Assembly: GCA_947259645.1 (NCBI GenBank)
Contig: CAMYND010000009.1
Coordinates: 7,241-71,240, forward strand
Reading direction: 5' to 3'
Source: Thermodesulfovibrionia bacterium
GTDB taxonomy: Bacteria; Nitrospirota; Thermodesulfovibrionia; UBA6902
Length of the DNA: 64,000 nucleotides
Positions 10,045-64,000 of the stretch are shown here, piece after piece (the first letter of the stretch is position 1; every line of letters begins with the position of its first letter). Below the pieces are notes generated by a model that searched no databases, was not told where the DNA came from, and saw only the letters and a program-made list of their open reading frames with translations. A program made the translations under genes and the position numbers.

Positions 10045-11034
10045 TCAACCGTTCGGTATGCCGTGGCCTGAGGTGGTCGACAGAACAACATCCAGGCAGA
10101 GTGCCGGTGTCAGCTCGTTCTTATAGTTATTAATGAAATGAGATACTTCCGCATCTATTTTAATGTCCATTGAGTTTGCAAAAAAAGTCTTGTCATGGAC
10201 CCCGGGGAAACGGTGTGATGCCATTTCGATTTCCGGATCTATCGGCATGTGACAGTCCTGACATCTCTTATCGCCGCCCAGATTGGTTTTGTAGTTTTCC
10301 AGATAACTTGTATAGAGAGTGCGGCATTGCCAGAAGGGCACGCTGTCAGGGCATCCGTGATGACACCTGGCGCAGTACTTGGATTTCTTCAGGAACTCTG
10401 ACTTGAGGGTCTGGTTAATGCCCTTTACATTTTCTCTATGGTTACTCTGGTCAACTTCTCCCGACGGTCCATAGATAGCATCTGCATGAGGTTTATTGGC
10501 CCAGTATCCGTCCTGTAATGCGAACATGTTATGGCATCCATAGCAGCCAAGGTTCAGTTTTGAAAGCTCCTTTTTCGCAGCTTCCCTTTTGCCTTTGTCC
10601 GGGTTATCAACGGATTCAATGATCTTATCAGTGATCTCCGCGACAAGCTCATCAGTAGCGTGTTTTATTCGGGGCTCGTGGCACCAGAGACAGTGGCTCT
10701 TGATGGACATCTTGGTCAGCTTCGATCCATCCCAGTCCGGTTTTGTTTCTTTTTCCAGTCCCTGTTTGATAAAGGTCCGCCATGTCTGCAGAACCCTCTC
10801 TGTGCTGAAAGCGTGGGATTTTCCTGATTGCTTCCACTGTTCATAAATTTCTTCATGACATTCACCGCACTGTTCCGAATTATACAGAGCCGCCATTTCG
10901 TCAATAGTAGAAACCAGTGGCACATTGTCAGGCACTGTCGGGCCATGTGCGCGGGTCATTGATCCTGTAGCATGGGCTGACAGTGGCACAAGAACGAGTG
11001 AGATGAACATGCATGTTGTCAACAAAAATCTCAT
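10045..11034 (-). CDS. periplasmic multiheme c-type cytochrome (5 CxxCH)
   Basis: Signal peptide. Heme-binding motifs CGECH, CLWCH, CYGCH, CARCH and CQDCH. Confidence 0.8.
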   Translation of the reverse strand: MRFLLTTCMFISLVLVPLSAHATGSMTRAHGPTVPDNVPLVSTIDEMAALYNSEQCGECHEEIYEQWKQSGKSHAFSTERVLQTWRTFIKQGLEKETKPDWDGSKLTKMSIKSHCLWCHEPRIKHATDELVAEITDKIIESVDNPDKGKREAAKKELSKLNLGCYGCHNMFALQDGYWANKPHADAIYGPSGEVDQSNHRENVKGINQTLKSEFLKKSKYCARCHHGCPDSVPFWQCRTLYTSYLENYKTNLGGDKRCQDCHMPIDPEIEMASHRFPGVHDKTFFANSMDIKIDAEVSHFINNYKNELTPALCLDVVLSTTSGHGIPNG

Positions 11035-41341: not shown

Positions 41342-41609
41342 TAAAATTATATTAGATGATCCTGCGCATTACATGCAGTAGCCAAAAAAGCGATTACATA
41401 TTCTGTAAACAGATTTCCTGACTCAGTATAGCTCAATGTCACATATCAAAGCTCAAATGCCAAATGAATGTCAAAATCTTAAGTTTTGATCAGACAAAGA
41501 CTAATAATAACGTGTAACATATGTGCCTGGATCGTACCGGGATGTGACATCTCTAATTCGTGAACAAGCTGGGGGCCACACAACAAATTATGTTGAAGGA
41601 GATAACATT

Positions 41610-43010
41610 ATGAAAAAGTTACTAATACTAACACTGTTGATCATTATAGTAATTGTAAGTCCGGTAATGGCACAGGAAGTTAAACAAATATTGAATGTTT
41701 CGGAGTTTGCAAACATAATTGACCAAACAGTGCCAGTGTTTGTTGACAGTGTTCCAACAAGGGAAGATGACTGGTACCACGGACGTCCCAAATATTCTCG
41801 CTTTTTACGCTTTAAAACGTTGAAAATGGCGTTTGGTGACGGCAATCCTGACAAAAAACATTTTAGGACAATGATGAGTGATTTGGGAATCACCAATGAC
41901 GACCACGTAGTATTATATGGTGCCAGGGGTGAAATTCCATATCATTTTGGAGCGTTTTACTTAATGAAATATTTCGGACACGAAAAGGTGAGCGTTTTAG
42001 ACGGTGGATTGTCCGAGTGGAGAGAGACGCAGCCAATTACAACTGAAGAAGTTACTGTTCAAAAAACTGAATACAAAGTTAAAGTGATGAATAGGAAAAT
42101 CCTCGCAGATGCTATCGATGTGTGGAGCAAGAGGTGGGATCCACATACTGCAATCATTGACGCAAGACTGCCGGAAGAAGTCAGTGGTTCCCTTGTTTTT
42201 GATGAGAATAAAAGGTCCGGTAGAATAGAATTATCTGTTAATGTTAACTGGTATGACCTGTTTAAGCCGAACGGGACCTTTAAAGAAGAATCAGAATTGC
42301 TGCAAAAGTTTGAAGATAAGGGCATCGGCAAGGACGATAACAGCATCGTCTACAGTCAGGCTGGGTACCGGGCGAGTGGTACGTATTTTGTGCTCACCCT
42401 GCTTGGTTTTCAGAATGTTAGAAACTATAGCGCAAGTTTTGTGGACTGGGCAAACCAGGAAAACAAAAAGAAGTATGCAGTCGTAGGGCCAGCATATTAT
42501 GTAGGTGGTAAAACGTGCAAGAAGTGTCACCGAAAACAGTACTTGTCATGGGCAAAGACCAAGATGGCGGTGAACTTCAATAACCTTAAACCAGGAGTTA
42601 AGGCAGACGCAAAAAAGAAGGTCGGCCTTGAACCGGAAAAGGATTACACCAATGATGAGAACTGTTTACCATGCCACACAACCGGGTACGGAAAACCAGG
42701 CGGTTTTGTAAGCCTAAAAGAAACGCCTGGATTAATAAACGTCCAGTGTGAGGGGTGTCATGGTCCTGGAAGCACATATGTGAAGCTAATGAAGGAAGGA
42801 AAGACAAAATGGGAAGAAGCAGGGTACACTGATGAACAGCTCAAGACAACTGGTTTAATAATTCCTGAAGAAAACGAACAGGGATGCATGGCATGCCACG
42901 GAGGTGATAGTCCATTTAACGAAAAAGTGGACTCAAAATACAATTGGAACTGGCCGGAAAGAGTACAAAAAACTCACAAACACTTCCCGCTCAAGTACAA
43001 AATAAAGTAA
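41610..43010 (+). CDS. periplasmic tandem rhodanese-like domains fused to a C-terminal tetraheme c-type cytochrome
   Basis: Signal peptide with an AAGGAG-type RBS. Two rhodanese-like modules (...VSVLDGGLSEW... and ...IVYSQAGYRASGTY...FVDW). The second active-site loop has Ser where the catalytic Cys is expected. Four CxxCH motifs follow (CKKCH, CLPCH, CEGCH, CMACH). Confidence 0.6.
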   Translation: MKKLLILTLLIIIVIVSPVMAQEVKQILNVSEFANIIDQTVPVFVDSVPTREDDWYHGRPKYSRFLRFKTLKMAFGDGNPDKKHFRTMMSDLGITNDDHVVLYGARGEIPYHFGAFYLMKYFGHEKVSVLDGGLSEWRETQPITTEEVTVQKTEYKVKVMNRKILADAIDVWSKRWDPHTAIIDARLPEEVSGSLVFDENKRSGRIELSVNVNWYDLFKPNGTFKEESELLQKFEDKGIGKDDNSIVYSQAGYRASGTYFVLTLLGFQNVRNYSASFVDWANQENKKKYAVVGPAYYVGGKTCKKCHRKQYLSWAKTKMAVNFNNLKPGVKADAKKKVGLEPEKDYTNDENCLPCHTTGYGKPGGFVSLKETPGLINVQCEGCHGPGSTYVKLMKEGKTKWEEAGYTDEQLKTTGLIIPEENEQGCMACHGGDSPFNEKVDSKYNWNWPERVQKTHKHFPLKYKIK

Positions 43011-52475: not shown

Positions 52476-54932
52476 TTAAGTCCCCTCTACCTTCACCGTA
52501 TTAATAGGATGCTCTCCATTTGAAGACAGGCGTGTGAGCATGTTTATTCTGGCATGGGGAAAGTGAGTTGGTACGAAGACCGTTCCTTCTGGCACATCGT
52601 CGGAGAGGGCAGCCTTGAGAAATACTGAGCCCTGTCGCGATGAGACCTTAACGTGGCTGTTGTCCGCGATGTCATATTTTTTCGCGTCTTCTTCATTGAT
52701 CTCCAAAAGAGCTTCCGACACAACAAGGTCAAGTGATTTTGAACTGGTAGACATGCTCCCGGAGTGCTGGAGAATATCTCTGATCACGAGTTTAAAGGGG
52801 TATTCTTTGTCTGCTTCTTCTCCCGGCCTGAATTCGACAGGATGAAAAGTTCTCTGAACAGAGACAGGATCCGCAGGACTGCCTGCATCCCCGATTTCTT
52901 CCTTAACAGCAGCGAGATCTCTTATCCCGACATCTTTGCCCATGGAGAGGGCAAGATTTTTCAGGATCATCCAGTCAGGCATGGACTGGCCGGTCGCGTC
53001 AGCAAGTTTATATACTGTCTGGTGAGTGCCTTCAGCGTTAATGAAGGTGCCGTCCTTTTCTGCCCAGCTTGAAGCCGGAAGCACAACATTAGCAAGTTTT
53101 GCTGTCTCGGTCATGAAAATATCCTGTACAACGAGAAAATCCAGGGATTTTAATTTAGCCATCACTTTGGAGCTGTCCGGAAAAGTCGTCACAGGATCCT
53201 CCCCCATAATATAGAGGGCTTTTACGGAGTTGTCCTCATAGAGCATCTTTACAATATCTTTGTCAGATGGTTGCATGGGTCTGACGCCCATATTATAAAG
53301 ACCATAGGTATTTGAGTATTCAGCAGGGACCTGGAGTGAATCAGGCTCGTCGCCGAGAAGATTAATGAGGTTTGCAGCAGCAAGTACTGTATCCAGTCCT
53401 TTTGTGTTTTCTGAAGTACTGACTGAAAGGGATATCATTCTGCTCTTTGCATTGCCAATGGACTCTGCTGCGGCTATAATTTCCTCTTCACTGATCCCTG
53501 TTATTTTTGAGACGTTTTCAGGTGTGTAGTTCTTCAGAGTTGACTGAAGTGACGAGAACTCAGGAATGGCTGATGCAGCGCTCTTATCGTATAAGCCTTT
53601 ATCCAGTATTACCTTTGTTAATCCATTAACAAGCGCAAGGCTTGTTCCGTCCTTGATTTCAAGCCAATCAGTGCTGTGCCGGGTGAGTTTTGTTTCCCGG
53701 GAATCAGCTACTATAAGCTTGCTGCCTGCTCTCATTGCCTCGAGGATGTTAATTCCATATACCGGGTGGGTTACGCTTATATCTGATTCAAGAATCAGAA
53801 TGACCTCTTTCCCTGCGGGAGCGTTAAGGCTTATGGGGTGATTCTTCTGGCCGAATGCTTTTTCCCATACTTTTTGCACTCCGCCATATCCAAAGGCCGC
53901 GGATGAGTCAAGGTTGTTTGTGCCGACCACGTTCTTCATGAATTTCTGAAGCACATAATTGTCTTCATTCGTGCAGCGGGGAGAACCGATCGCGCCTATT
54001 GACGAGGCACTGGAATTTTTTGAGATCTTCTCAAGGTTTTTTGCAACGTAGGAGAGGGCATCTTCCCATGATACGCTTTTAAACTCATCGCCTTCCTTAA
54101 TGAGCGGTGTCTTGAGGCGCTTTTCACTATAGATATAATCAATGCCGAATCTGCCGCGTCCGCAGAGGTTTCCGTCATTTACTCCTGTTCCCTGTTTTCC
54201 TCTGGACCTGAGAATTTTTCCCTCCCTCATGCCGAGATGGAGCGTGCAGCCAACGCCGCAGAAGGGACAGATGGTGCTTTTCTCCTCAAGAAACCATGAG
54301 CGTGAGGTAAATTTGTAGGGTTTGCTCAAGATCGCTCCGGTTGGACAAATATCAAGGCATTGCCCGCAGTAGTCACACTCGAGTATTTCGCCAAAAGCAG
54401 GCTGAACAACCGTTGGGAACCCCCTGCCGATCAGTCCCAGGGCACCTCTTCCCTGATGGTCTCTGCAGATTCGTACGCACTTTCCGCAAAGGATGCAGCG
54501 CCGTGACGTAAGTTCAATTAACGGGCCCCGGATGTCTGATTTCGTCTCTTTTCTGGACCGGATAAACCGTGTGTCAGGTTTGCCGTATTCATAGGCGAGG
54601 TCCTGGAGGTCACATTCCCCAGCCTTGTCACATTCAGGACAGTCAAGGGGATGATGGACCAGGAGGAGTTCTATTACTGTCTGGCGCTGTTTCCTTAATT
54701 TTGGTGTGTCTGTCTGAATGACCATTCCGTCAGCAGCAGGGGAAGAGCATGCTGCAAGAAGACGGGCCTGACCCTCTACTTCAACAATGCAGAGCCTGCA
54801 TCCCCCGTAAGGCCTGAGCCTCTTGTCGTAGCACAAATTCGGGATATAAATATCATTTTGCAAAGCAGCTTCCAGAATGGTGCAACCCTGTTCTGCCTGG
54901 ATTTTCTTGTTGTTTATCGTGAGATTCATCAT
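52476..54932 (-). CDS. molybdopterin-oxidoreductase-fold subunit, FdhA/NuoG-like (N-terminal 2Fe-2S, His-ligated 4Fe-4S, 2x 4Fe-4S and MopB cluster); catalytic Sec/Cys apparently absent
   Basis: CYDKRLRPYGGCRLC (2Fe-2S). HHPLDCPECDKAGECD. CILCGKCVRIC and CDYCGQCLDICP. CPFCGVGC (MopB FS0). C-terminal molybdopterin-dinucleotide-binding-like domain. Where FdhF has GTNNVDCCARV-U-HGPS, this protein has GTNNLDSSAAFGYGGV. Confidence 0.6.
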   Translation of the reverse strand: MMNLTINNKKIQAEQGCTILEAALQNDIYIPNLCYDKRLRPYGGCRLCIVEVEGQARLLAACSSPAADGMVIQTDTPKLRKQRQTVIELLLVHHPLDCPECDKAGECDLQDLAYEYGKPDTRFIRSRKETKSDIRGPLIELTSRRCILCGKCVRICRDHQGRGALGLIGRGFPTVVQPAFGEILECDYCGQCLDICPTGAILSKPYKFTSRSWFLEEKSTICPFCGVGCTLHLGMREGKILRSRGKQGTGVNDGNLCGRGRFGIDYIYSEKRLKTPLIKEGDEFKSVSWEDALSYVAKNLEKISKNSSASSIGAIGSPRCTNEDNYVLQKFMKNVVGTNNLDSSAAFGYGGVQKVWEKAFGQKNHPISLNAPAGKEVILILESDISVTHPVYGINILEAMRAGSKLIVADSRETKLTRHSTDWLEIKDGTSLALVNGLTKVILDKGLYDKSAASAIPEFSSLQSTLKNYTPENVSKITGISEEEIIAAAESIGNAKSRMISLSVSTSENTKGLDTVLAAANLINLLGDEPDSLQVPAEYSNTYGLYNMGVRPMQPSDKDIVKMLYEDNSVKALYIMGEDPVTTFPDSSKVMAKLKSLDFLVVQDIFMTETAKLANVVLPASSWAEKDGTFINAEGTHQTVYKLADATGQSMPDWMILKNLALSMGKDVGIRDLAAVKEEIGDAGSPADPVSVQRTFHPVEFRPGEEADKEYPFKLVIRDILQHSGSMSTSSKSLDLVVSEALLEINEEDAKKYDIADNSHVKVSSRQGSVFLKAALSDDVPEGTVFVPTHFPHARINMLTRLSSNGEHPINTVKVEGT

Positions 54933-56782
54933 TATTTGTCACCTCCCTCTTTAACTGCCGAGACAGGTTTTTCTTTCCGGATGGCCGGCTTTACCTCAAT
55001 TGAGGCGAATTTGCAGGTGTCATAGCATGACCTGCACTGTATGCACAGTTCCTGAATGATCCTGTGGGCCTTTTTCTTTTCTCCGACGATGGCTTCCTGC
55101 GGACATGCCCGCAGGCAGGCACCGCATCCCTTGCACAGTTCTTCGGAAATATGAAATGAGCAGAGGTCGCTGCATATTCCTGCTTCACACCAATGATCTT
55201 TAATGTGTGCTTCATATTCATGTTTGAAATATCGTATCGTGGAAAGGACGGGATTCGGGGCTGTCTGGCCGAGTCCGCAAAGAGATGTACTGATAATGTC
55301 CCTGCTCAGGTCTTCAAGCTTTTCAATATCGCCTTCCTGTCCTCTGCCCTCTGTTATGTCGGTGAGCATATCGAGCATTACTCTTGTTCCGACGCGGCAG
55401 GGGGTGCATTTCCCGCATGATTCATCGGCGGTAAACTCAAGAAAAAACTTTGCCGTGCTCACCATGCAAGTGTCTTCGTCCATTACTACCATTCCTCCTG
55501 AACCCATGATAGCACCGGTCTTGACAATGTCTTCGTAGGTTACGGGGATGTCGATATGGTCCTCGGGGATACAGCCTCCTGAGGGGCCGCCCATTTGCAC
55601 GGACTTGAACTTTTTCTTTTTGTTTGTCATCCCGCCACCGATATCATAGATAATCGTTTTCAGAGGGGTTCCCATGGGGACTTCGACGAGCCCGACGTTT
55701 TTTATATCCCCTGTAAGGGCAAATACCTTTGTGCCGGTACTCTTTTCAGTCCCCAGTGACTTGTACCATTCAGCCCCGTTCAGGATGGTTGGGGCTATCT
55801 GTGCCAGGGTCTCAACGTTGTTCAGGACTGATGGCTTGTCCCACAGGCCCTTATGGGCAGGGAAGGGAGGACGTGGTCTTGGCATACCGCGCTTTCCTTC
55901 AATGGAACGCATCAGCGCTGTTTCTTCACCGCATACAAATGCCCCTGCACCCAGGTATATTTCAAGGTCAAAGTTAAATCCGCTTCCCAAAATGTTTTCA
56001 CCAAGAAGACCATTCTCACGACAAAGCTTAATCGCTGTTTCAAGCCTCGCTACTGCCAGCGGATACTCGGCTCTGACGTAGATTACGCCTTTGCTCGCGC
56101 CTATCGCCTTTGCGCCGATTAACATGCCTTCGATTACTGAGTGGGGATCAGATTCCATAACAGACCTGTCCATGAATGCCCCGGGGTCACCTTCGTCACC
56201 GTTGCACAGCATGAACTTCTGGTCAGCTACTGACTTTGAGGCGAACTCCCACTTTAACCCTGTCGGGAAACCTGCTCCTCCCCGTCCCCTGATTCCTGCG
56301 TCTTTAATAGTCTGTATTATATCTTCCGGGGTCATTTCCGTTAAGGCCTTACCAGCAGCCATATACCCGTCTCGTGCGATGTACTCATCCAGGCTGTCAG
56401 GATCAATGAGCCCCTTATTCCTCAGGACCCTCAATACCTGGTGCTTGAAGAACGGGATATCATTCATTAATGGAATGGCTGCCCTCTTCTCAGGGTCCTT
56501 GAACATCAGTTTTTCATAGGGCCGGCCTTTCAGGAAGTGCTCTTCAACAAGTTTCGGGACTTCCGCGACAGTCAATTTCTGATAAAAGATCTCTTCAGGG
56601 TACACCAGCATTACAGGCCCTTCAGCACAGAATCCGTTGCATCCGGTCAGCACGATCTTTACCTCGTCGGCAAGGCCCTGCTTTTCCAGCTCTTCCTGAA
56701 GGGCATCTTTAACCTTGGGGGTCCCGCTTGCAACGCATCCGGTCCCGGCACACATGAGTAAATTGGCACGATATTTTTCCAT
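54932..56782 (-). CDS. NuoF/HndC-like NAD(P)H-binding flavoprotein subunit with N-terminal thioredoxin-like 2Fe-2S domain and C-terminal 2x[4Fe-4S] ferredoxin domain
   Basis: GRGGAGFPTGLKWEF (FMN/NADH site). ESCGKCTPCRVGT (N3 cluster). CKGCGACLRACP and CIQCRSCYDTC ferredoxin motifs. N-terminal CAGTGC...C. Confidence 0.8.
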   Translation of the reverse strand: MEKYRANLLMCAGTGCVASGTPKVKDALQEELEKQGLADEVKIVLTGCNGFCAEGPVMLVYPEEIFYQKLTVAEVPKLVEEHFLKGRPYEKLMFKDPEKRAAIPLMNDIPFFKHQVLRVLRNKGLIDPDSLDEYIARDGYMAAGKALTEMTPEDIIQTIKDAGIRGRGGAGFPTGLKWEFASKSVADQKFMLCNGDEGDPGAFMDRSVMESDPHSVIEGMLIGAKAIGASKGVIYVRAEYPLAVARLETAIKLCRENGLLGENILGSGFNFDLEIYLGAGAFVCGEETALMRSIEGKRGMPRPRPPFPAHKGLWDKPSVLNNVETLAQIAPTILNGAEWYKSLGTEKSTGTKVFALTGDIKNVGLVEVPMGTPLKTIIYDIGGGMTNKKKKFKSVQMGGPSGGCIPEDHIDIPVTYEDIVKTGAIMGSGGMVVMDEDTCMVSTAKFFLEFTADESCGKCTPCRVGTRVMLDMLTDITEGRGQEGDIEKLEDLSRDIISTSLCGLGQTAPNPVLSTIRYFKHEYEAHIKDHWCEAGICSDLCSFHISEELCKGCGACLRACPQEAIVGEKKKAHRIIQELCIQCRSCYDTCKFASIEVKPAIRKEKPVSAVKEGGDK

Positions 56783-57381: not shown

Positions 57382-58254
57382 TCATGCGTATTCTTCCAGA
57401 ACACCCTGAACCTTTTTTGGTGTCATTGCACCGTATGTTTCTTCATCCACGACAATAACAGGCGCAAGACCGCATGCCCCGAGGCACCGTACTGTTTCGA
57501 TAGAGAATTTTTTGTCTTCCGTAACCTCTCCAACATCTATTTTGAGCGTTGATTTGAATTTTTCCAGTACTTCCTCTACTCTCTTTACGTAGCACGCTGT
57601 GCCGAGACATACCCTGACATTATGGTCCCCTCTGGGTTTCATGGTGAAATAGGAATAAAATGTCACGATACTGTGAATTTCTGCCGGAGACATATTGAGC
57701 CCCTTCGCGACCCGTTTCTGCACAACAGGGGGCAAATATCCGACGATTGCCTGACAGCGCTGGAGAACAGGGATTGAACTTCCCGGCTTGTTCCTGTACT
57801 CCTTTATGACCCGGTCAATCTCCTGTCTCATGGACGGGGGAAATTCTTCCTCTTTTTTCTCTTCTTCAACAGCAGCCTTGCCCTTTATCCACTGCACTGA
57901 CCGTTCTGTTACGTCCAGAAGCACTGCCGGGGTAAAGGGTTTCGGCACATAATCGATTATTCCGGCTTCAAGGGCATCTTTAATCGTATCCTGTGACGGG
58001 TACCCCGTGATGACAACGATACCGGTGTCAGGCCTGTTCTGCCTGATCCACTTAATAAGGGTGATACCATCTACTTCAGGCATCTTAAGGTCAGTGAATA
58101 CGAGGTCATAGGGGGTCTGCTCCATCTTCAGTATCGCCTCTTTGCCTCCCAGAACTCCTTCGATATTGTACCCTTCGGACCTGAGTACCGATTCGCAGCT
58201 TCTGATAATGACGGGCTCATCGTCAACAACCAGAATTTTAATATCATCTGCCAT
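57382..58254 (-). CDS. response-regulator receiver domain fused to NuoE/HndA-like [2Fe-2S] subunit
   Basis: N-terminal CheY-like domain (ILVVDDEPVII...DLVFTDLKMPEVDG...KPF). C-terminal NuoE signature (IPVLQRCQAIVGYLPP...VCLGTACYVKRVEEV...VRCLGACGLAPV). Confidence 0.75.
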   Translation of the reverse strand: MADDIKILVVDDEPVIIRSCESVLRSEGYNIEGVLGGKEAILKMEQTPYDLVFTDLKMPEVDGITLIKWIRQNRPDTGIVVITGYPSQDTIKDALEAGIIDYVPKPFTPAVLLDVTERSVQWIKGKAAVEEEKKEEEFPPSMRQEIDRVIKEYRNKPGSSIPVLQRCQAIVGYLPPVVQKRVAKGLNMSPAEIHSIVTFYSYFTMKPRGDHNVRVCLGTACYVKRVEEVLEKFKSTLKIDVGEVTEDKKFSIETVRCLGACGLAPVIVVDEETYGAMTPKKVQGVLEEYA

Positions 58255-58426: not shown

Positions 58427-59191
58427 CTATTTTGCTAAGGGGAATACTTTTGCCAGCCAAAGAAGCCATCCTTCTGATAGATGGTCCTTAAGAAGTGCTG
58501 CCATGACGTCATTCGCCTTCGTATTGATCTCTCTGAGCTCTCCATTCATGGGAGAAAGCAGGCTTTGTGATTTGCCGCTGCTTGTATAAATATTCGCAAA
58601 AACCTGACCCGCATCAAGGGTATCCAGATCTTTAACAAACTCTACATACATTAAATCTCCTGCAAGCATCCAGTATCTCAGGTCACAGCCGACTTCCCAC
58701 AGTCCGTCGCCGGAGGGTCGTGCCCAGGTGCCTTCTTTATAAAAAATAACAGGGTTTTCCTGGTCCCGCAGGGGTGATACAAAGTCCCTGAAATCGTCAA
58801 TAAAGGCCTGCCGCAATATCCAGCCCCGGGTGTCAAAAACCTTCTGGGCGACATTAAGCATAAAGTCAGGGGTAAAGGGTTTTTCAATGTATTCCGCTGC
58901 TCCCAGTTTTGACGATTCCTTGGCATCTTCCAGAGTCGGGTAACCCGTAATTATCACTACGTCTGTTTTCGGCTTGATGACACGGGCTTCCTTAAGCACT
59001 TCTAGCCCGCTCATTCCCGGCATTTTCACATCGGATATCAGGAGGTCAAAATCTTCTTTTGAGAGTTTATTGAGGGCATCTTCTCCGTTATCTACCGTGG
59101 AAATGCTGTAACCTTCAGCTCCGAGAATTCTCTTGCAGCTTAAGGTTACAATTGGATCATCATCGACTACTAGTATTCTCCCTTTTTCCAT
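58427..59191 (-). CDS. response-regulator receiver domain fused to a GcvH-like (lipoyl/biotinyl-type hybrid barrel) domain
   Basis: N-terminal CheY-like domain (ILVVDDDPIV...DLLISDVKMPGMSG...KPF). The C-terminal about 120 aa aligns by eye with glycine-cleavage H protein (FYKEGTW...GLWEVGCD...AGDLMYVEF...YTSSGKSQSLLSPMNGELREIN...EGWLLWLA), including a Lys at the lipoyl-Lys position. Confidence 0.5.
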   Translation of the reverse strand: MEKGRILVVDDDPIVTLSCKRILGAEGYSISTVDNGEDALNKLSKEDFDLLISDVKMPGMSGLEVLKEARVIKPKTDVVIITGYPTLEDAKESSKLGAAEYIEKPFTPDFMLNVAQKVFDTRGWILRQAFIDDFRDFVSPLRDQENPVIFYKEGTWARPSGDGLWEVGCDLRYWMLAGDLMYVEFVKDLDTLDAGQVFANIYTSSGKSQSLLSPMNGELREINTKANDVMAALLKDHLSEGWLLWLAKVFPLAK

Positions 59192-59295: not shown

Positions 59296-59820
59296 TTAGC
59301 CAGCACTTATAGCGTCTTTAATAATTTTTATTACGTCCGGCGTATTAATCGGGATATTGCCCAGCTCTTTTTTTATTTCAGATGTATCTAAAACGTATGT
59401 TTTATCATCTCTTTTGTGTTCGAAGAAAAAATCAATTTCAGGATTAGATACTATCAGAACGATCAGTGTTTTTCCAACATCTCCCATGGGTTTCCTGTCT
59501 ATGTGGTCATGCTGAAAAGATACGGATATGGAGGTGCCCCCGCCTTTTTGAGAGGTCACCTGTATGTCCCCCCTGCACTCCCGTGCAGCCTGGGCGAGCA
59601 TCGGGATGCCAAGCCCCACTTTTCTCGTCGTCCTTGTAGTGTAAAAGGGATCGCAGGCATGTTCCAGCAGTTCCGCGTCCATCCCCTGTCCGTTGTCTTT
59701 AATGTCTATAGTCAGGATATTGTCTTTGACACTTTCCCTCAGCCTGATCTCAATTCTGGACGCCCCCGCTGTTATCGAGTTTTCAACAATATCAAGGATA
59801 TGTAATGATAGATCTTCCAT
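59296..59820 (-). CDS. GHKL-type ATPase domain protein (histidine-kinase-like / anti-sigma-factor-like Ser kinase), no HisKA or sensor domain
   Basis: N-box region ILDIVENSITAG. G1 DNGQGM. G2 GLGIPM. C-terminal about 70 aa of unknown function. Confidence 0.6.
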   Translation of the reverse strand: MEDLSLHILDIVENSITAGASRIEIRLRESVKDNILTIDIKDNGQGMDAELLEHACDPFYTTRTTRKVGLGIPMLAQAARECRGDIQVTSQKGGGTSISVSFQHDHIDRKPMGDVGKTLIVLIVSNPEIDFFFEHKRDDKTYVLDTSEIKKELGNIPINTPDVIKIIKDAISAG

Positions 59821-59934
59821 AATTGTGATTTATCTTGCCACAGACTTGCACAGACTTAAAGACATGATACTATCTCTATTACTGTTTAGTGCTTAACCTG
59901 CTTTTGTCTGTGTTAGTCAGTGGCTGAATAATCT

Positions 59935-60675
59935 TCACTCCCATTCCACCTTTCTTCCATCTTTGTTTTTCATTGCCATTCTTATCTCTGTAATTGACGG
60001 GGCCTGCAGGGAGAAATTTGAAATTTTTTTTGCAATGTCTGCCGGATAGTGGGCGTCAGAGGACGCTATCCAGGTATATGAGCTGTAGTCTTTGAACAGG
60101 CTCTCAGCCTTTTCCCTTGTCATATTCGGGGACATTTCAAGGGCGTCAAAGTTCATCTGATCCGGGATAAATCCCAGCTGCGACAGTATACTGAAGGCCC
60201 CCCTGTCAATATGTGAGGCTATGGCCAGACCGCCCAGATCGTGGATGGTCTCTATTATTGTTTGAGCAGGCAGATCAGTGGCGGCTATGAGCATCCGATT
60301 GTTCATGCCTAACACTTCATCCTGTTCATTGACAATTACCTGCTCCCCGAATCTGCTTACATCATTGGTCCCGGGAAGAAGGTTTTTATATACAATTTCC
60401 TGTAGATCTAAAATACGATCGTCATCAAAGATCCCCAGGATATGTGCTTCTTCTGAAGATGCTACCTCCATACCGGCAAGAACAGTAAGGTTGAACTGCG
60501 CTGCGGATTTTCTTGCTGCCTGCACATTTTCAGCAGAATTGTGGTCAGTAATAGCGATGATATCCAGACCCTTTTGTGAAGCGGTCTCAATAATTGAAGC
60601 AGGGGTCATATCCAGTTCAGCGCAGGGGGAAAGGCAGGTATGTATATGCAGGTCAGCTTTATATTGTTTCAACAT
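59935..60675 (-). CDS. PHP-domain metal-dependent phosphoesterase
   Basis: DLHIHTCLSPCA and IIAITDHNS His motifs of the PHP superfamily. Confidence 0.7.
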   Translation of the reverse strand: MLKQYKADLHIHTCLSPCAELDMTPASIIETASQKGLDIIAITDHNSAENVQAARKSAAQFNLTVLAGMEVASSEEAHILGIFDDDRILDLQEIVYKNLLPGTNDVSRFGEQVIVNEQDEVLGMNNRMLIAATDLPAQTIIETIHDLGGLAIASHIDRGAFSILSQLGFIPDQMNFDALEMSPNMTREKAESLFKDYSSYTWIASSDAHYPADIAKKISNFSLQAPSITEIRMAMKNKDGRKVEWE

Positions 60676-60708
60676 AAGAGGTTTTCAGGATTCTGTTCAG
60701 CAGCTCTT

Positions 60709-61044
60709 TTACCTGTCAAGCAGTTGATAAAGCTTTCCTGCTGCTTCAAATGCCGGCAGGGGTGTTGTCATGACAGTTACTTTTTCGGCCCGGGCCTTCT
60801 CTATGACGTCTTCCGCCGGTTTTCTGTTTCCCACAATAATTATTCCGGCCAGGCCTTTCATATCAGCTACAGCGATAATATTCAGGTGAGTCTGAAGCGT
60901 AATCCATATATTCCCTACATTGCTGTTGGCCATAACATCAGACAGGAGATCACTGACATATGCTCCCGTGACTTCATTATTCATGCTTTCTTCACAGGTT
61001 ACTATTTCCAGCGACAAGTCTTTGATCAGATCCTGAAGATTCAT
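60709..61044 (-). CDS. DRTGG-domain protein
   Basis: About 110 aa with a core resembling the DRTGG domain (IAVADMKGLAGIIIVGN...). Confidence 0.5.
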   Translation of the reverse strand: MNLQDLIKDLSLEIVTCEESMNNEVTGAYVSDLLSDVMANSNVGNIWITLQTHLNIIAVADMKGLAGIIIVGNRKPAEDVIEKARAEKVTVMTTPLPAFEAAGKLYQLLDR

Positions 61045-61085
61045 AACATGACCCCTTTTGTAGTATTTCTCAGTATGAAATATGT

Positions 61086-61523
61086 CTACGGGATATTTAA
61101 AACCATCTCCACTGTCGTGCCTTCGCCCACAACAGACTCAATATTAAATTCATCTGAGTTCTTTTTCATGTTCGGGAGCCCCATTCCTGCTCCCCAGCCC
61201 ATTTCCCGCACCCACTCGGGAGCGGTCGAGTACCCCTCCTGCATTGCCTGCTCGATATTTTCAATGCCGGGCCCCATGTCTTCAATCCTGATCCGGATGG
61301 AAGACGGGCCAATAAAGTACAGCAGTCGTGCTGCTGCCGCGTATATAATTACATTGATTTCCGCTTCAAAGGTGGCGATAGCGGCACGCCGTATGATTTC
61401 TTCAGCAACACCGAGATCAGTGAGCGTCCGTTTCAGCTCGCCAGAGGCCTCACCGGCAGTGGCAAAGTTTCCGCCTACGAGCTGAAAGCTGCCTTCTATT
61501 GTTTTGTCACTATTCAGTGGCAT
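61086..61523 (-). CDS. GHKL-type ATPase, anti-sigma-factor/RsbW-like Ser kinase
   Basis: EAEINVIIYA N-box-like. DMGPGI (G1). GAGMGL (G2). About 145 aa, like SpoIIAB/RsbW. Confidence 0.6.
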   Translation of the reverse strand: MPLNSDKTIEGSFQLVGGNFATAGEASGELKRTLTDLGVAEEIIRRAAIATFEAEINVIIYAAAARLLYFIGPSSIRIRIEDMGPGIENIEQAMQEGYSTAPEWVREMGWGAGMGLPNMKKNSDEFNIESVVGEGTTVEMVLNIP

Positions 61524-61527
61524 CTGC

Positions 61528-61878
61528 TTACTTGTCCAGACATCCCGGTAACCCCTCTTTAAACAGCCTTCCTGAGGCGGTGTACATGCAGAAGGATGTG
61601 CTTAACAGGGGGATTTTTTTCTTTTGAGCCAGGTCGATAGTTTCTTTGTCCGGCTTCTTATCCAGGACAAAAACAATGGATTTGATCCCCGCTATTTCAG
61701 CGGTACGGATAACATGAGGCTGGGTGAGGCTGGTGATAAGCAGTGAGTTGGGTGTGTGGTAATACAGGACAGCGCTCATCATATCAGCACTGCAGGCGCT
61801 GTGAATATCTATCTCTGAATTCTCAGGATTTGCGATGATAGATGCTTCAAGAATTTTAGCTATCTCTTTTAAAATCAT
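61528..61878 (-). CDS. DRTGG-domain protein (second copy)
   Basis: About 116 aa paralogous to 60709-61044 (LITSLTQPHVIRTAEIAGIKSIVFV). Its stop overlaps the downstream GHKL gene. Confidence 0.5.
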   Translation of the reverse strand: MILKEIAKILEASIIANPENSEIDIHSACSADMMSAVLYYHTPNSLLITSLTQPHVIRTAEIAGIKSIVFVLDKKPDKETIDLAQKKKIPLLSTSFCMYTASGRLFKEGLPGCLDK

Positions 61879-61901: not shown

Positions 61902-62267
61902 TTAGTCCGATGGTCCGAATACTTCCTGAACCGCTTTAAGCAGCGTGTCGGGTGTAAAAGGCTTTTCTATAAAGTTATATGCACCGACTCTCAGCGCCTG
62001 AACAGCCGTATCAACTGTGCTGTAGCCTGTTACCATAACAACTTTCGTCTCCGGCCAGTTCTCCTTTATTTTGCTGAGCACCTCCATGCCGTCCATGTCC
62101 GGCATTTTCAGGTCAAGCAGAACCAGTGCGAAGGTTTCCTTTTCAAGGCACGCTATCCCTTCTTTGCCGCTGGCCGTGAGCGTCACATCATATCCTTCCG
62201 GGGTCAGGGTCCTGTCGCAGCTTGTCCTGACTATGGCTTCATCATCTACTACGAGAATTTTTTTCAT
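61902..62267 (-). CDS. single-domain response regulator (CheY-like receiver)
   Basis: ILVVDDEAIV...LVLLDLKMPDMDG...KPF. Start overlaps the upstream kinase stop (ATGA). Confidence 0.8.
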   Translation of the reverse strand: MKKILVVDDEAIVRTSCDRTLTPEGYDVTLTASGKEGIACLEKETFALVLLDLKMPDMDGMEVLSKIKENWPETKVVMVTGYSTVDTAVQALRVGAYNFIEKPFTPDTLLKAVQEVFGPSD

Positions 62268-63850
62268 GATTCTAAGGGTAGTCTAACAAAAAAGCTGGTG
62301 CCTTTACCAATGGTGCTCTTGACCTTTATATGGCCGCCCAGGTGCTTCACAATTCCATGACTTACAGAGAGACCGAGCCCTGTTCCTTTCCCGACCGGCT
62401 TGGTTGTGAAAAAGGGTTCAAAGAGCTTTGGCATGTCCTCTTCCTTTATTCCGCACCCTTCGTCTGTAAACTCTATTTCAACATAGGGCTTTTCATTTTC
62501 CAATGCCCCCCTCGTTCTAATGGTGATATTCCCCCGGCCATTCATGGCGTCAGCAGCATTAATGAACATGTTCAGAAAAATCTGCTGGAACTGAGAACCA
62601 TCGCCTACAACGACAAACTGCTTGTCCGCGAAATCCGGGTTGAATTTTATATGGTGAAACTTTGCCTGGTTCTGCACCATGAATATTGTCCTGTTCAGCA
62701 CCTCATTAATGCTTACCTTGCCTTTCTCAGAAGGTGTCGCACGGGCGAAGGTGAGAAGGTTTTTGATGATTTTTGCGCATCGTTCAGACTGTTCAATAAT
62801 AATATCGAGGTCCTGTGATTCGGTGCTTTCCGGGGGAAACCTCTTCTTTAACAGGTGAGCAAATGTGACGACTCCGGTTAAAGGGTTGTTAATTTCATGG
62901 GCCACCCCCGCGGCCATTCTTCCCAGAGATGCCAGCTTTTCAGTCTGCATGAGGTTGGCATGGGTCTTCTGGATTTCATCTGTTTTCTTTTCAATTTCTA
63001 CTTCAAGGGTCTGGGTCCATCGTTCCCGCTGGTCTCTGGCCCCTTTCAGGTCACGGATCATCGAGTTGAATGTTCGCGCCAATTTGCCGATTTCATCATC
63101 TGATCTCACCTGAACAGTGTTCTCGAGGTTCCCGCCGGAAACCTTCTCCATTCCCTGGACAAGCTCATTGACCGGTTTGGAAACAATTTTATAGAGGATG
63201 ATTCCAAGAAAGATCGATACGGCAAGAACAAACATGATAACGTACGCGGTCAGGGCGAGCCCCTGCTTTAAGAGGGCCTCATCCAGAACAGCAAGGGAGA
63301 GGTCTGCCTTCACAAAGCCGAGTATTTCCGGGCTTTCCGGATGGGCGTGACAGGCTGCCGTGGAACATTCGGGGGCGTTTAAAATCGATTCTACCATGTG
63401 CAGCGAGGTTTTACCTTTTTCGTCTCTGTGGACGAACAGTTTTCTGGTTTCTGTCAGCAATTCCCCTGATTCACTGTTGGAATGACATCCGGTGCAGGCT
63501 ATAGATGTTCTGTCAACAGAGTTCCCTGCTTTTTCTGATTTTGATGAAAATACAATGTTGCCGCGATGGTCGTAGATCTGAACGCCCTGAACACCTTCCG
63601 GCGTGCTGAGGGTGTCCAGTACGCGCTGGGTTTCTTCCCTGTCAAATATAAGCATGCTGCGGCGTGTGCTGGCTTTCGTGAAGTTTACAAAAGACCTGCC
63701 GTACTTGGTCGCAATCGACAGAACATCTTTTTCCTGCTTTTGAAGAATGGCATACCAGAAGATGAGGCTCAGTATAATCATCAGGAGGCCGATGGCGATA
63801 ATAAGCTTTGCAGCTATGGATTTATCGGGATTGCGGAGAATATTTTTCAT
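62264..63850 (-). CDS. sensor histidine kinase with a periplasmic di-heme c-type cytochrome sensor domain
   Basis: TM1. Periplasmic domain with two CxxCH motifs (CTGCH, CSTAACH). TM2, HAMP-like linker and HisKA H-box (AAGVAHEINNPL). HATPase_c G-boxes (DEGCGI, GTGLGLS). Confidence 0.75.
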   Translation of the reverse strand: MKNILRNPDKSIAAKLIIAIGLLMIILSLIFWYAILQKQEKDVLSIATKYGRSFVNFTKASTRRSMLIFDREETQRVLDTLSTPEGVQGVQIYDHRGNIVFSSKSEKAGNSVDRTSIACTGCHSNSESGELLTETRKLFVHRDEKGKTSLHMVESILNAPECSTAACHAHPESPEILGFVKADLSLAVLDEALLKQGLALTAYVIMFVLAVSIFLGIILYKIVSKPVNELVQGMEKVSGGNLENTVQVRSDDEIGKLARTFNSMIRDLKGARDQRERWTQTLEVEIEKKTDEIQKTHANLMQTEKLASLGRMAAGVAHEINNPLTGVVTFAHLLKKRFPPESTESQDLDIIIEQSERCAKIIKNLLTFARATPSEKGKVSINEVLNRTIFMVQNQAKFHHIKFNPDFADKQFVVVGDGSQFQQIFLNMFINAADAMNGRGNITIRTRGALENEKPYVEIEFTDEGCGIKEEDMPKLFEPFFTTKPVGKGTGLGLSVSHGIVKHLGGHIKVKSTIGKGTSFFVRLPLES

Positions 63851-64000
63851 ATCCGTGTATTATAGGTGCGTTTTTGTTTTTTTAAAAGAATTAAATAATA
63901 AAATTTCAGTTATTTATAAATGTTCATTTTGCAATGTAGCATTCTCAAAATTGCCGGTAAGCATAATTCCGGGGTATTGCTGATAAATAAGTTAAAACTA

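Follow-up and report, generated by a model that had tools for sequence, protein, structure and literature searches.

What a membrane-bound histidine kinase with two c-type heme motifs might read, and to which proteins it might pass that reading, is the question raised by a locus at the end of a 64,000-nucleotide stretch of DNA (the window) from a Thermodesulfovibrionia bacterium (GenBank assembly GCA_947259645.1, contig CAMYND010000009.1, positions 7,241 to 71,240). The gene in question (62264..63850, minus strand) is an ATG-to-stop open reading frame (ORF) encoding 528 amino acids, with Pfam matches to HAMP, HisKA and HATPase_c domains and an N-terminus that is kept in 22 orthologues. Judged by its sequence, the product is a transmembrane HAMP-HisKA-HATPase_c sensor histidine kinase, with predicted kinase activity. 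It is likely that the periplasmic part of this kinase is a single Cache domain carrying two covalently bound c-type hemes, and that it senses redox state or a gas. Periplasmic PAS-like or Cache sensors with heme c are already established (GSU0582, GSU0935, DcrA, Tll0287 and sCache_heme), and homologues with an extra motif have been noted before. The window gene is thus a member of a large, poorly annotated and uncharacterised two-heme subfamily of a known kind of sensor.

Membrane topology and the two heme motifs

The topology of the kinase was derived from Kyte-Doolittle hydropathy (19-residue windows) together with the order of its domains. A signal-anchor helix, the first transmembrane helix (TM1, residues 12-36; 63743..63817, minus strand as all features of the gene), reaches a mean hydropathy of up to 2.77, and a second one (TM2, residues 198-222; 63185..63259) of up to 2.63. 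TM2 runs straight into the HAMP domain (residues 219-269; 63044..63196; PF00672, E = 5.6e-13), which is followed by the HisKA dimerisation and phosphoacceptor domain (residues 309-372; 62735..62926; PF00512, E = 8.4e-17) and by the catalytic HATPase_c domain (residues 416-527; 62270..62605; PF02518, E = 3.6e-26). The phosphoacceptor His318, in the H-box AHEINNPL, is nearly invariant among 76 full-length relatives. As the HAMP domain and the ATP-dependent kinase core come directly after TM2, and hence are cytoplasmic, the loop between the two transmembrane helices has to be periplasmic. The preliminary description had already put the CTGCH and CSTAACH motifs between two transmembrane helices, in the periplasm, and had named beforehand a cytoplasmic location of the motifs as the outcome that would contradict heme attachment. 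Hydropathy peaks at residues 12-36 and 198-222, with HAMP and the core after TM2, indicate the periplasmic location, and on the same grounds cytoplasmic placement of both motifs was rejected.

The loop of 161 amino acids that forms the periplasmic sensor domain, with a single-Cache fold (residues 37-197; 63260..63742), contains four cysteines in all, every one within one of the two motifs. The first motif, CTGCH (residues 119-123; 63482..63496), has the CxxCH form, and the second, CSTAACH (residues 162-168; 63347..63367), the Cx4CH form, which is a recognised c-heme motif (PMC11492766). When the protein was shuffled 100,000 times, CxxCH appeared in 0.14% of the shuffles and CxxCH together with Cx4CH in 0.001%; the probability of a chance origin of the pair is about 1e-5. 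Chance occurrence was therefore rejected, by the shuffling and by the presence of both motifs in 22 of 22 orthologues and in 141 of the 151 relatives described below.

The orthologues were collected by a pattern scan with one genome per species, which gave 22 loci, all from metagenome-assembled genomes of Thermodesulfovibrionia/Nitrospirota. Identity over the N-terminal sensor region is 50-66%, and both motifs are present in every orthologue with differing inner residues (C[TKRQA][GSA]CH and C[YSFN]xxxCH). A word-indexed search with the sensor domain gave one relative only, and it was an exhaustive HMMER search against 1.84 billion representatives, also with the sensor domain alone, that brought out the family: 647 clusters at E<=1e-3, of which 254 at E<=1e-10. 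These 647 clusters (at 50% identity) are spread over Nitrospirota, Acidobacteriota, Bacteroidota/Ignavibacteria, Zixibacteria, Syntrophobacteria and others. Among the 151 relatives examined (the top 150 of the HMMER matches plus P0001), 141 carry exact CxxCH and Cx4CH motifs about 43 residues apart; truncated fragments and two sequences with Cx3CH are among the other ten.

Conservation within the family is concentrated on residues that a heme protein would need. The invariant columns in the 76 full-length relatives are C119, C122, H123, C167, H168, L177 and G178, with C162 just under invariant. Across 131 aligned sensor domains, a set pre-selected for carrying both motifs, C119, C122, H123 and C162, C167, H168 are all invariant, and the only further conserved potential axial ligands are Met66 (97%; 63653..63655) and His170 (96%; 63341..63343). 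Two attachment motifs and two spare ligands match the need of two six-coordinate hemes. Met66 is the predicted distal ligand of the heme at motif 2, and His170 is a candidate distal ligand of the additional heme.

Some family members are short (190-290 amino acids) even on long contigs. In the two cases inspected (L023:6001-7510 and L024:6001-7669), the region reads as two ORFs, the sensor (with or without HAMP) and then the kinase core with HisKA and HATPase, where the HAMP domain is found in L024. They are probably frameshift artefacts of the assemblies, and such split gene calls inflate the count of short matches in the homologue list. The idea that the short members are Cache_heme-HAMP receptors lacking an output domain was rejected, as the kinase core lay in the next ORF in both cases.

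Cache fold and kinship with Geobacter heme sensors

The sensor domain was modelled with AlphaFold2 from an alignment of 65 sequences (predicted local distance difference test score, pLDDT, 80.4; predicted template modelling score, pTM, 0.77). The model begins with a long helix that continues from TM1 and has Met66 at its end; after a second helix and two strands comes a linker of low confidence in which motif 1 is found, and then two more strands; a short helix holding motif 2, the fifth strand and a C-terminal helix complete it. Normally, helices between strands 2 and 3 cover the Cache pocket like a lid, and motif 1 stands in their place. According to this model, the sensor domain has the fold of a single Cache domain, onto which heme sites were grafted, and not that of a cytochrome. 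A multiheme cytochrome of the c3, c7 or NrfB type was considered and rejected, as the fold is that of Cache and the cytochrome models of Pfam score below threshold (Cytochrome_C7 gave E = 0.034 and 14.4 bits, with a cut-off of 24.8).

The closest characterised proteins are chemoreceptors of Geobacter sulfurreducens. A profile of 41 sensor domains was searched against the PDB sequences, and its best matches were GSU0935 (3B42; E = 1.2e-6) and GSU0582 (3B47; E = 1.1e-4). In the profile alignment, the family pattern PIxNEPxCxxxxCH lies over PFPNEQRCQSCH of 3B42, so that motif 2 (NEPxCxxxxCH in the family, NAPECSTAACH in the window) aligns with NEQRCQSCH. With a chain offset of 34, Cys140, Cys143 and His144 of GSU0935 correspond to motif 2 of the window protein, and Met66 corresponds to Met26 of the 3B42 chain, which is Met60 of full-length GSU0935. 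The stretch with motif 1 measures 30 residues in the family and 14 in 3B42, that is, an insertion of about 16 residues. Scanning of 3B42 fragments showed that PF21563 (Mcp40H-20_sensor) represents the GSU0935 family, and this model is matched by 42 of the 76 full-length relatives at E<=0.01.

The architecture agrees with this kinship. Like the window kinase, GSU0935 and GSU0582 have a periplasmic PAS-like/Cache domain between two transmembrane helices with HAMP after it, a c-heme motif following a P-x-x-N-E strand at the same alignment position, and a distal methionine on the N-terminal helices (Met60 and Met66, respectively). They differ in output, as the Geobacter proteins are chemoreceptors and the window protein is a histidine kinase, and in the canonical site, which is CxxCH in the former and Cx4CH in the latter. 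Moreover, the family of the window protein has a second invariant CxxCH in the insertion, whereas GSU0935 and GSU0582 have a single heme. The comparison with Geobacter-type heme sensors, proposed at the outset as a check, thus revealed homology at profile level, with the heme site of GSU0935 and GSU0582 at motif 2. The c-heme sensor feeding a HAMP/HisKA/HATPase core, which the preliminary description had suggested, is supported as far as sequence allows, by motif and ligand conservation and by this homology.

Homologues of GSU0935 and GSU0582 with an additional heme-binding motif have been reported, namely GSU0599 and GSU0591 of G. sulfurreducens and Adeh_2011 and Adeh_3383 of Anaeromyxobacter, in which the heme motif has a similar position and a CX2-4CH signature (PMC3831638, PMC8396549). 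Their likeness to the window family is one of description and not of sequence comparison; GSU0599 is annotated as a two-component protein. In the literature searched, no biochemical characterisation of any of the four was found. Two-motif sensors were reportedly first described by Londer et al. in 2006.

Could it be that only motif 2 binds heme, and that the first CxxCH is a structural disulfide, a metal site or a thiol-redox site? The characterised GSU0935 and GSU0582 indeed have a single heme at the position of motif 2, and the model has its lowest confidence where motif 1 lies. However, the histidine right after the second cysteine of motif 1 is invariant in 131 of 131 sensor domains and would be needless for a disulfide or a thiol switch. 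There is also a second conserved potential distal ligand, His170, besides Met66, and the extra motifs of GSU0599, Adeh_2011 and Adeh_3383 are treated as heme-binding (PMC3831638, PMC8396549). A one-heme domain is therefore improbable.

Another group of known sensors, sCache_heme (DUF3365/Tll0287-like, PF11845), resembles the window sensor in having a c-heme motif grafted onto a Cache fold, an extracytoplasmic location and fusion to signalling domains. It includes Cache_heme-HAMP receptors for nitric oxide (NO) and is enriched in Nitrospirota and Desulfobacterota (PMC12889525; 10.64898/2026.05.25.727664). The window sensor gave no match to PF11845. DcrA of Desulfovibrio vulgaris is likewise a periplasmic c-heme sensor, and comes from an anaerobic sulfate reducer; it differs in being a chemoreceptor with one heme, a comparison made by description and not by sequence. 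According to a paper that cites the work on DcrA, it was proposed as a sensor of oxygen or of redox potential (PMC3460858).

As to where the inserted motif came from, positions 58-99 of the family profile A4 (about residues 93-134 of the window protein, with motif 1) weakly resemble the region around a heme motif of the cytochrome c nitrite reductase NrfA (1fs7, residues 280-320; E = 0.0035). This match is marginal, but may hint that the inserted motif was once part of a cytochrome, an origin also suggested for sCache_heme.

Several points weigh against a two-heme Cache sensor and must be taken into account. The positive-inside rule does not decide the topology, with charges of +3/-1 at the N-terminus and +4/-2 just after TM1. 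The pLDDT is about 47-51 around motif 1, as is expected in such a model for a loop whose folding depends on a cofactor, and the assignment of His170 to the heme at motif 1 is a guess. The window sensor (residues 37-197) matched no Pfam or NCBIfam model, PF21563 included, even at E<=10, and its homology to the Geobacter sensors is visible at profile level only. Sites of the Cx4CH type can need a suitable maturation system, and no cytochrome c maturation genes were found within the window. Finally, the searched literature yielded no biochemical study of any two-heme member.

Other multiheme cytochromes are encoded in the window, indicating that the organism matures c-type cytochromes. One protein of 329 amino acids (10045-11034, minus strand) has five CxxCH motifs and weak matches to cytochrome families. 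Another of 495 amino acids (41523-43010, plus strand) is a fusion of rhodanese domains with a four-heme cytochrome c554-like part, with four CxxCH motifs; this unusual combination suggests sulfur-linked electron transfer.

Possible signal and transmission in the predicted two-heme domain

Periplasmic heme-c sensors are among the few known ways in which bacteria read extracytoplasmic redox state or gases, and the studied examples have a single heme. The two-heme clade is large and coherent, and is poorly annotated by current Pfam models. Taking together the gene structure, the topology, the conservation of motifs and ligands, the Cache fold, the homology to GSU0935 and GSU0582 and the synteny observed here, we infer how heme attachment, axial ligation, the signal sensed and the phosphotransfer targets may be arranged. 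In this proposal, the sensor heme would occupy the site known from GSU0935 and GSU0582, where Cys162 and Cys167 would bind it covalently; His168 would be its proximal ligand, and Met66 a distal ligand that can come off. In the insertion of about 16 residues, Cys119 and Cys122 would hold the second heme, with His123 as ligand, and His170 may complete its coordination.

The behaviour of the Geobacter proteins offers a guide to how such a domain might work. Oxidised GSU0582 and GSU0935 are high-spin, and reduction turns them low-spin, since Met60 then binds; NO and carbon monoxide (CO) bind by displacing Met60; and the midpoint potentials are -156 mV for GSU0582 and -251 mV for GSU0935 (PMC8396549). 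By analogy, a shift of the periplasmic redox poise, or the binding of NO or CO, could alter the coordination or spin state of the Met-ligated heme in the window kinase. The heme held by His168 and Met66 would be the switch, and the signal would pass through the transmembrane helices and HAMP to the kinase core. As the helix extending from TM1 is predicted to have Met66 at its end, a change in the ligation of this residue could move the transmembrane helices and HAMP and alter kinase activity. As for the extra heme, its most likely role would be to connect the sensor heme with periplasmic electron carriers, either by letting electrons in or relaying them, or by providing a second titration point.

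Whether redox potential or a diatomic gas (NO, CO or O2) is the signal concerns the stimulus and not the architecture, which would be the same. Signalling-linked sCache_heme domains act as selective NO sensors (PMC12889525), and the methionine that NO and CO displace in GSU0582 and GSU0935 is conserved as Met66 in the window family. On the other hand, the neighbours in the relatives are complex I and an NADH-linked oxidoreductase and not genes for NO detoxification or denitrification, and an electron relay is the easier explanation of the second heme, although neither point is decisive. Gas sensing in place of redox sensing is possible, if somewhat unlikely.

It might also be thought that the domain is a Cache receptor for a small molecule, such as formate or another carboxylate relevant to the NuoG/FdhA-like enzyme encoded downstream, with the hemes accessory or structural. 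However, identity to such receptors is just 10-15%, the residues conserved in the family are heme-related (Cys, His and Met) and not a carboxylate-binding set, motif 1 replaces the helices that normally lid the Cache pocket, and other family members stand in unrelated respiratory contexts. Such a role for the domain appears very improbable.

These other contexts are two unrelated family members, one beside a cytochrome conduit of the MtrB/PioB type, and the other beside NrfD/Fe-S genes and a sigma-54 regulator of the NtrC type. Thus, a respiratory or redox theme recurs across the family.

Receivers, the NuoE module and the conserved neighbourhood

The kinase is the first gene of a co-directional array on the minus strand, and its stop codon overlaps by ATGA the start of the next gene, which encodes a stand-alone receiver of 121 amino acids (61902..62267, minus strand; Response_reg, E = 2.6e-33). 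The preliminary description was right in placing the kinase at the head of the array. The stand-alone receiver is likely the cognate response regulator of the kinase, and the kinase would phosphorylate this translationally coupled partner. It adjoins the kinase in 19 of the 19 related loci that extend past the 3' end of the kinase gene. In the same 19 loci, the block of kinase, receiver, DRTGG, HATPase and DRTGG genes is kept, in full or as far as the contig reaches, except that the first DRTGG gene is missing from L014.

Further downstream, on the same strand, the order is DRTGG, HATPase_c_2, DRTGG, PHP, HATPase_c, a receiver fused to a GcvH-like domain (58427..59191; Response_reg and GCV_H) and a receiver fused to a NuoE-type [2Fe-2S] subunit (57382..58254; Response_reg and 2Fe-2S_thioredx). 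Genes for a [2Fe-2S] ferredoxin, a NuoF-type subunit of 616 amino acids and a NuoG/formate dehydrogenase-like subunit of 818 amino acids follow. The residues needed for phosphorylation (D12, D13, D57, T87 and K109 in the numbering of Escherichia coli CheY) are kept in all three receivers, and the two fused receivers are possible additional phosphoacceptors. We infer their targeting by the kinase, which may thus also phosphorylate the receiver-fused GcvH-like protein and the receiver-fused NuoE of the downstream NuoE/NuoF/NuoG-FdhA-like oxidoreductase module.

The coupling to receiver-fused NuoE, put forward before this analysis, held up in part. It is plausible, and the receiver-NuoE module comes after the kinase in about 10 of about 15 loci with enough downstream DNA. 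However, synteny is only partial: in about 5 such relatives the module is not beside the kinase, so the kinase need not be linked to NuoE. The fusion itself is present in all 120 matches listed (clusters at 90% identity), and among them every one with a source organism name belongs to Nitrospirota.

The other side of the kinase gene also carries respiratory genes. In 19 of 22 related loci the kinase stands head-to-head with nuoA of a full nuoABCDEFG complex I operon (L001:2463-9566, with equivalent regions across L002-L022), with a gap of 140-600 bp between kinase and nuoA in all but L014 (5.5 kb). From this arrangement, the kinase and complex I operons probably share a control region. No more than 150 bp of the window lie upstream of the kinase start, and nuoA is expected to follow shortly after position 64000. 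In Thermodesulfovibrionia the kinase thus stands between a complex I operon and an array of receiver-fused NuoE and GcvH-like proteins. Such a position makes it a concrete candidate, and one open to testing, for a protein that couples NADH-dependent metabolism to the redox state of the periplasm in sulfate-reducing Nitrospirota.

A more far-reaching model can be built on this arrangement. The two-heme domain would equilibrate with the cytochromes of the periplasm or with an electron pool linked to menaquinone, and the one kinase would phosphorylate receiver-NuoE and the receiver-GcvH-like protein. In this way the respiratory redox state outside the cytoplasm would turn a soluble NADH-linked oxidoreductase of the NuoEF/NuoG-FdhA type on or off after translation, in step with the complex I operon next to the kinase. 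We consider this whole chain unlikely. If true, redox enzyme subunits would themselves be the response regulators of a two-component system, and the pathway would have no transcription factor.

Just upstream of the kinase ATG there is a sigma-70-like promoter match (TTTAAA-16-TATAAT; 63859..63886, minus strand), which is weak evidence, as 2 such matches were found and 2.7 were expected, with no enrichment. With its -10 box ending only 9 nt from the ATG, it would give an mRNA with almost no leader or none at all.

The block between the stand-alone receiver and the NuoE module (59296-61878, minus strand) consists of DRTGG, an RsbW-like HATPase_c_2 protein, DRTGG, PHP and a HATPase_c-only protein; it is conserved and has no DNA-binding protein in it. 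A search of the literature on these DRTGG, PHP and HATPase neighbours found nothing relevant. Those of the listed receiver-NuoE matches that have a source name bear no annotation other than 'response regulator', 'HndA' or 'NuoE'. In the region beyond receiver-NuoE (52476-56782, minus strand), the NuoF-type subunit of 616 amino acids has an extra N-terminal [2Fe-2S] domain and two C-terminal [4Fe-4S] sites, and the accompanying subunit of 818 amino acids scores 456 bits as NuoG and 467 bits as formate dehydrogenase alpha, both under the curated cut-offs.

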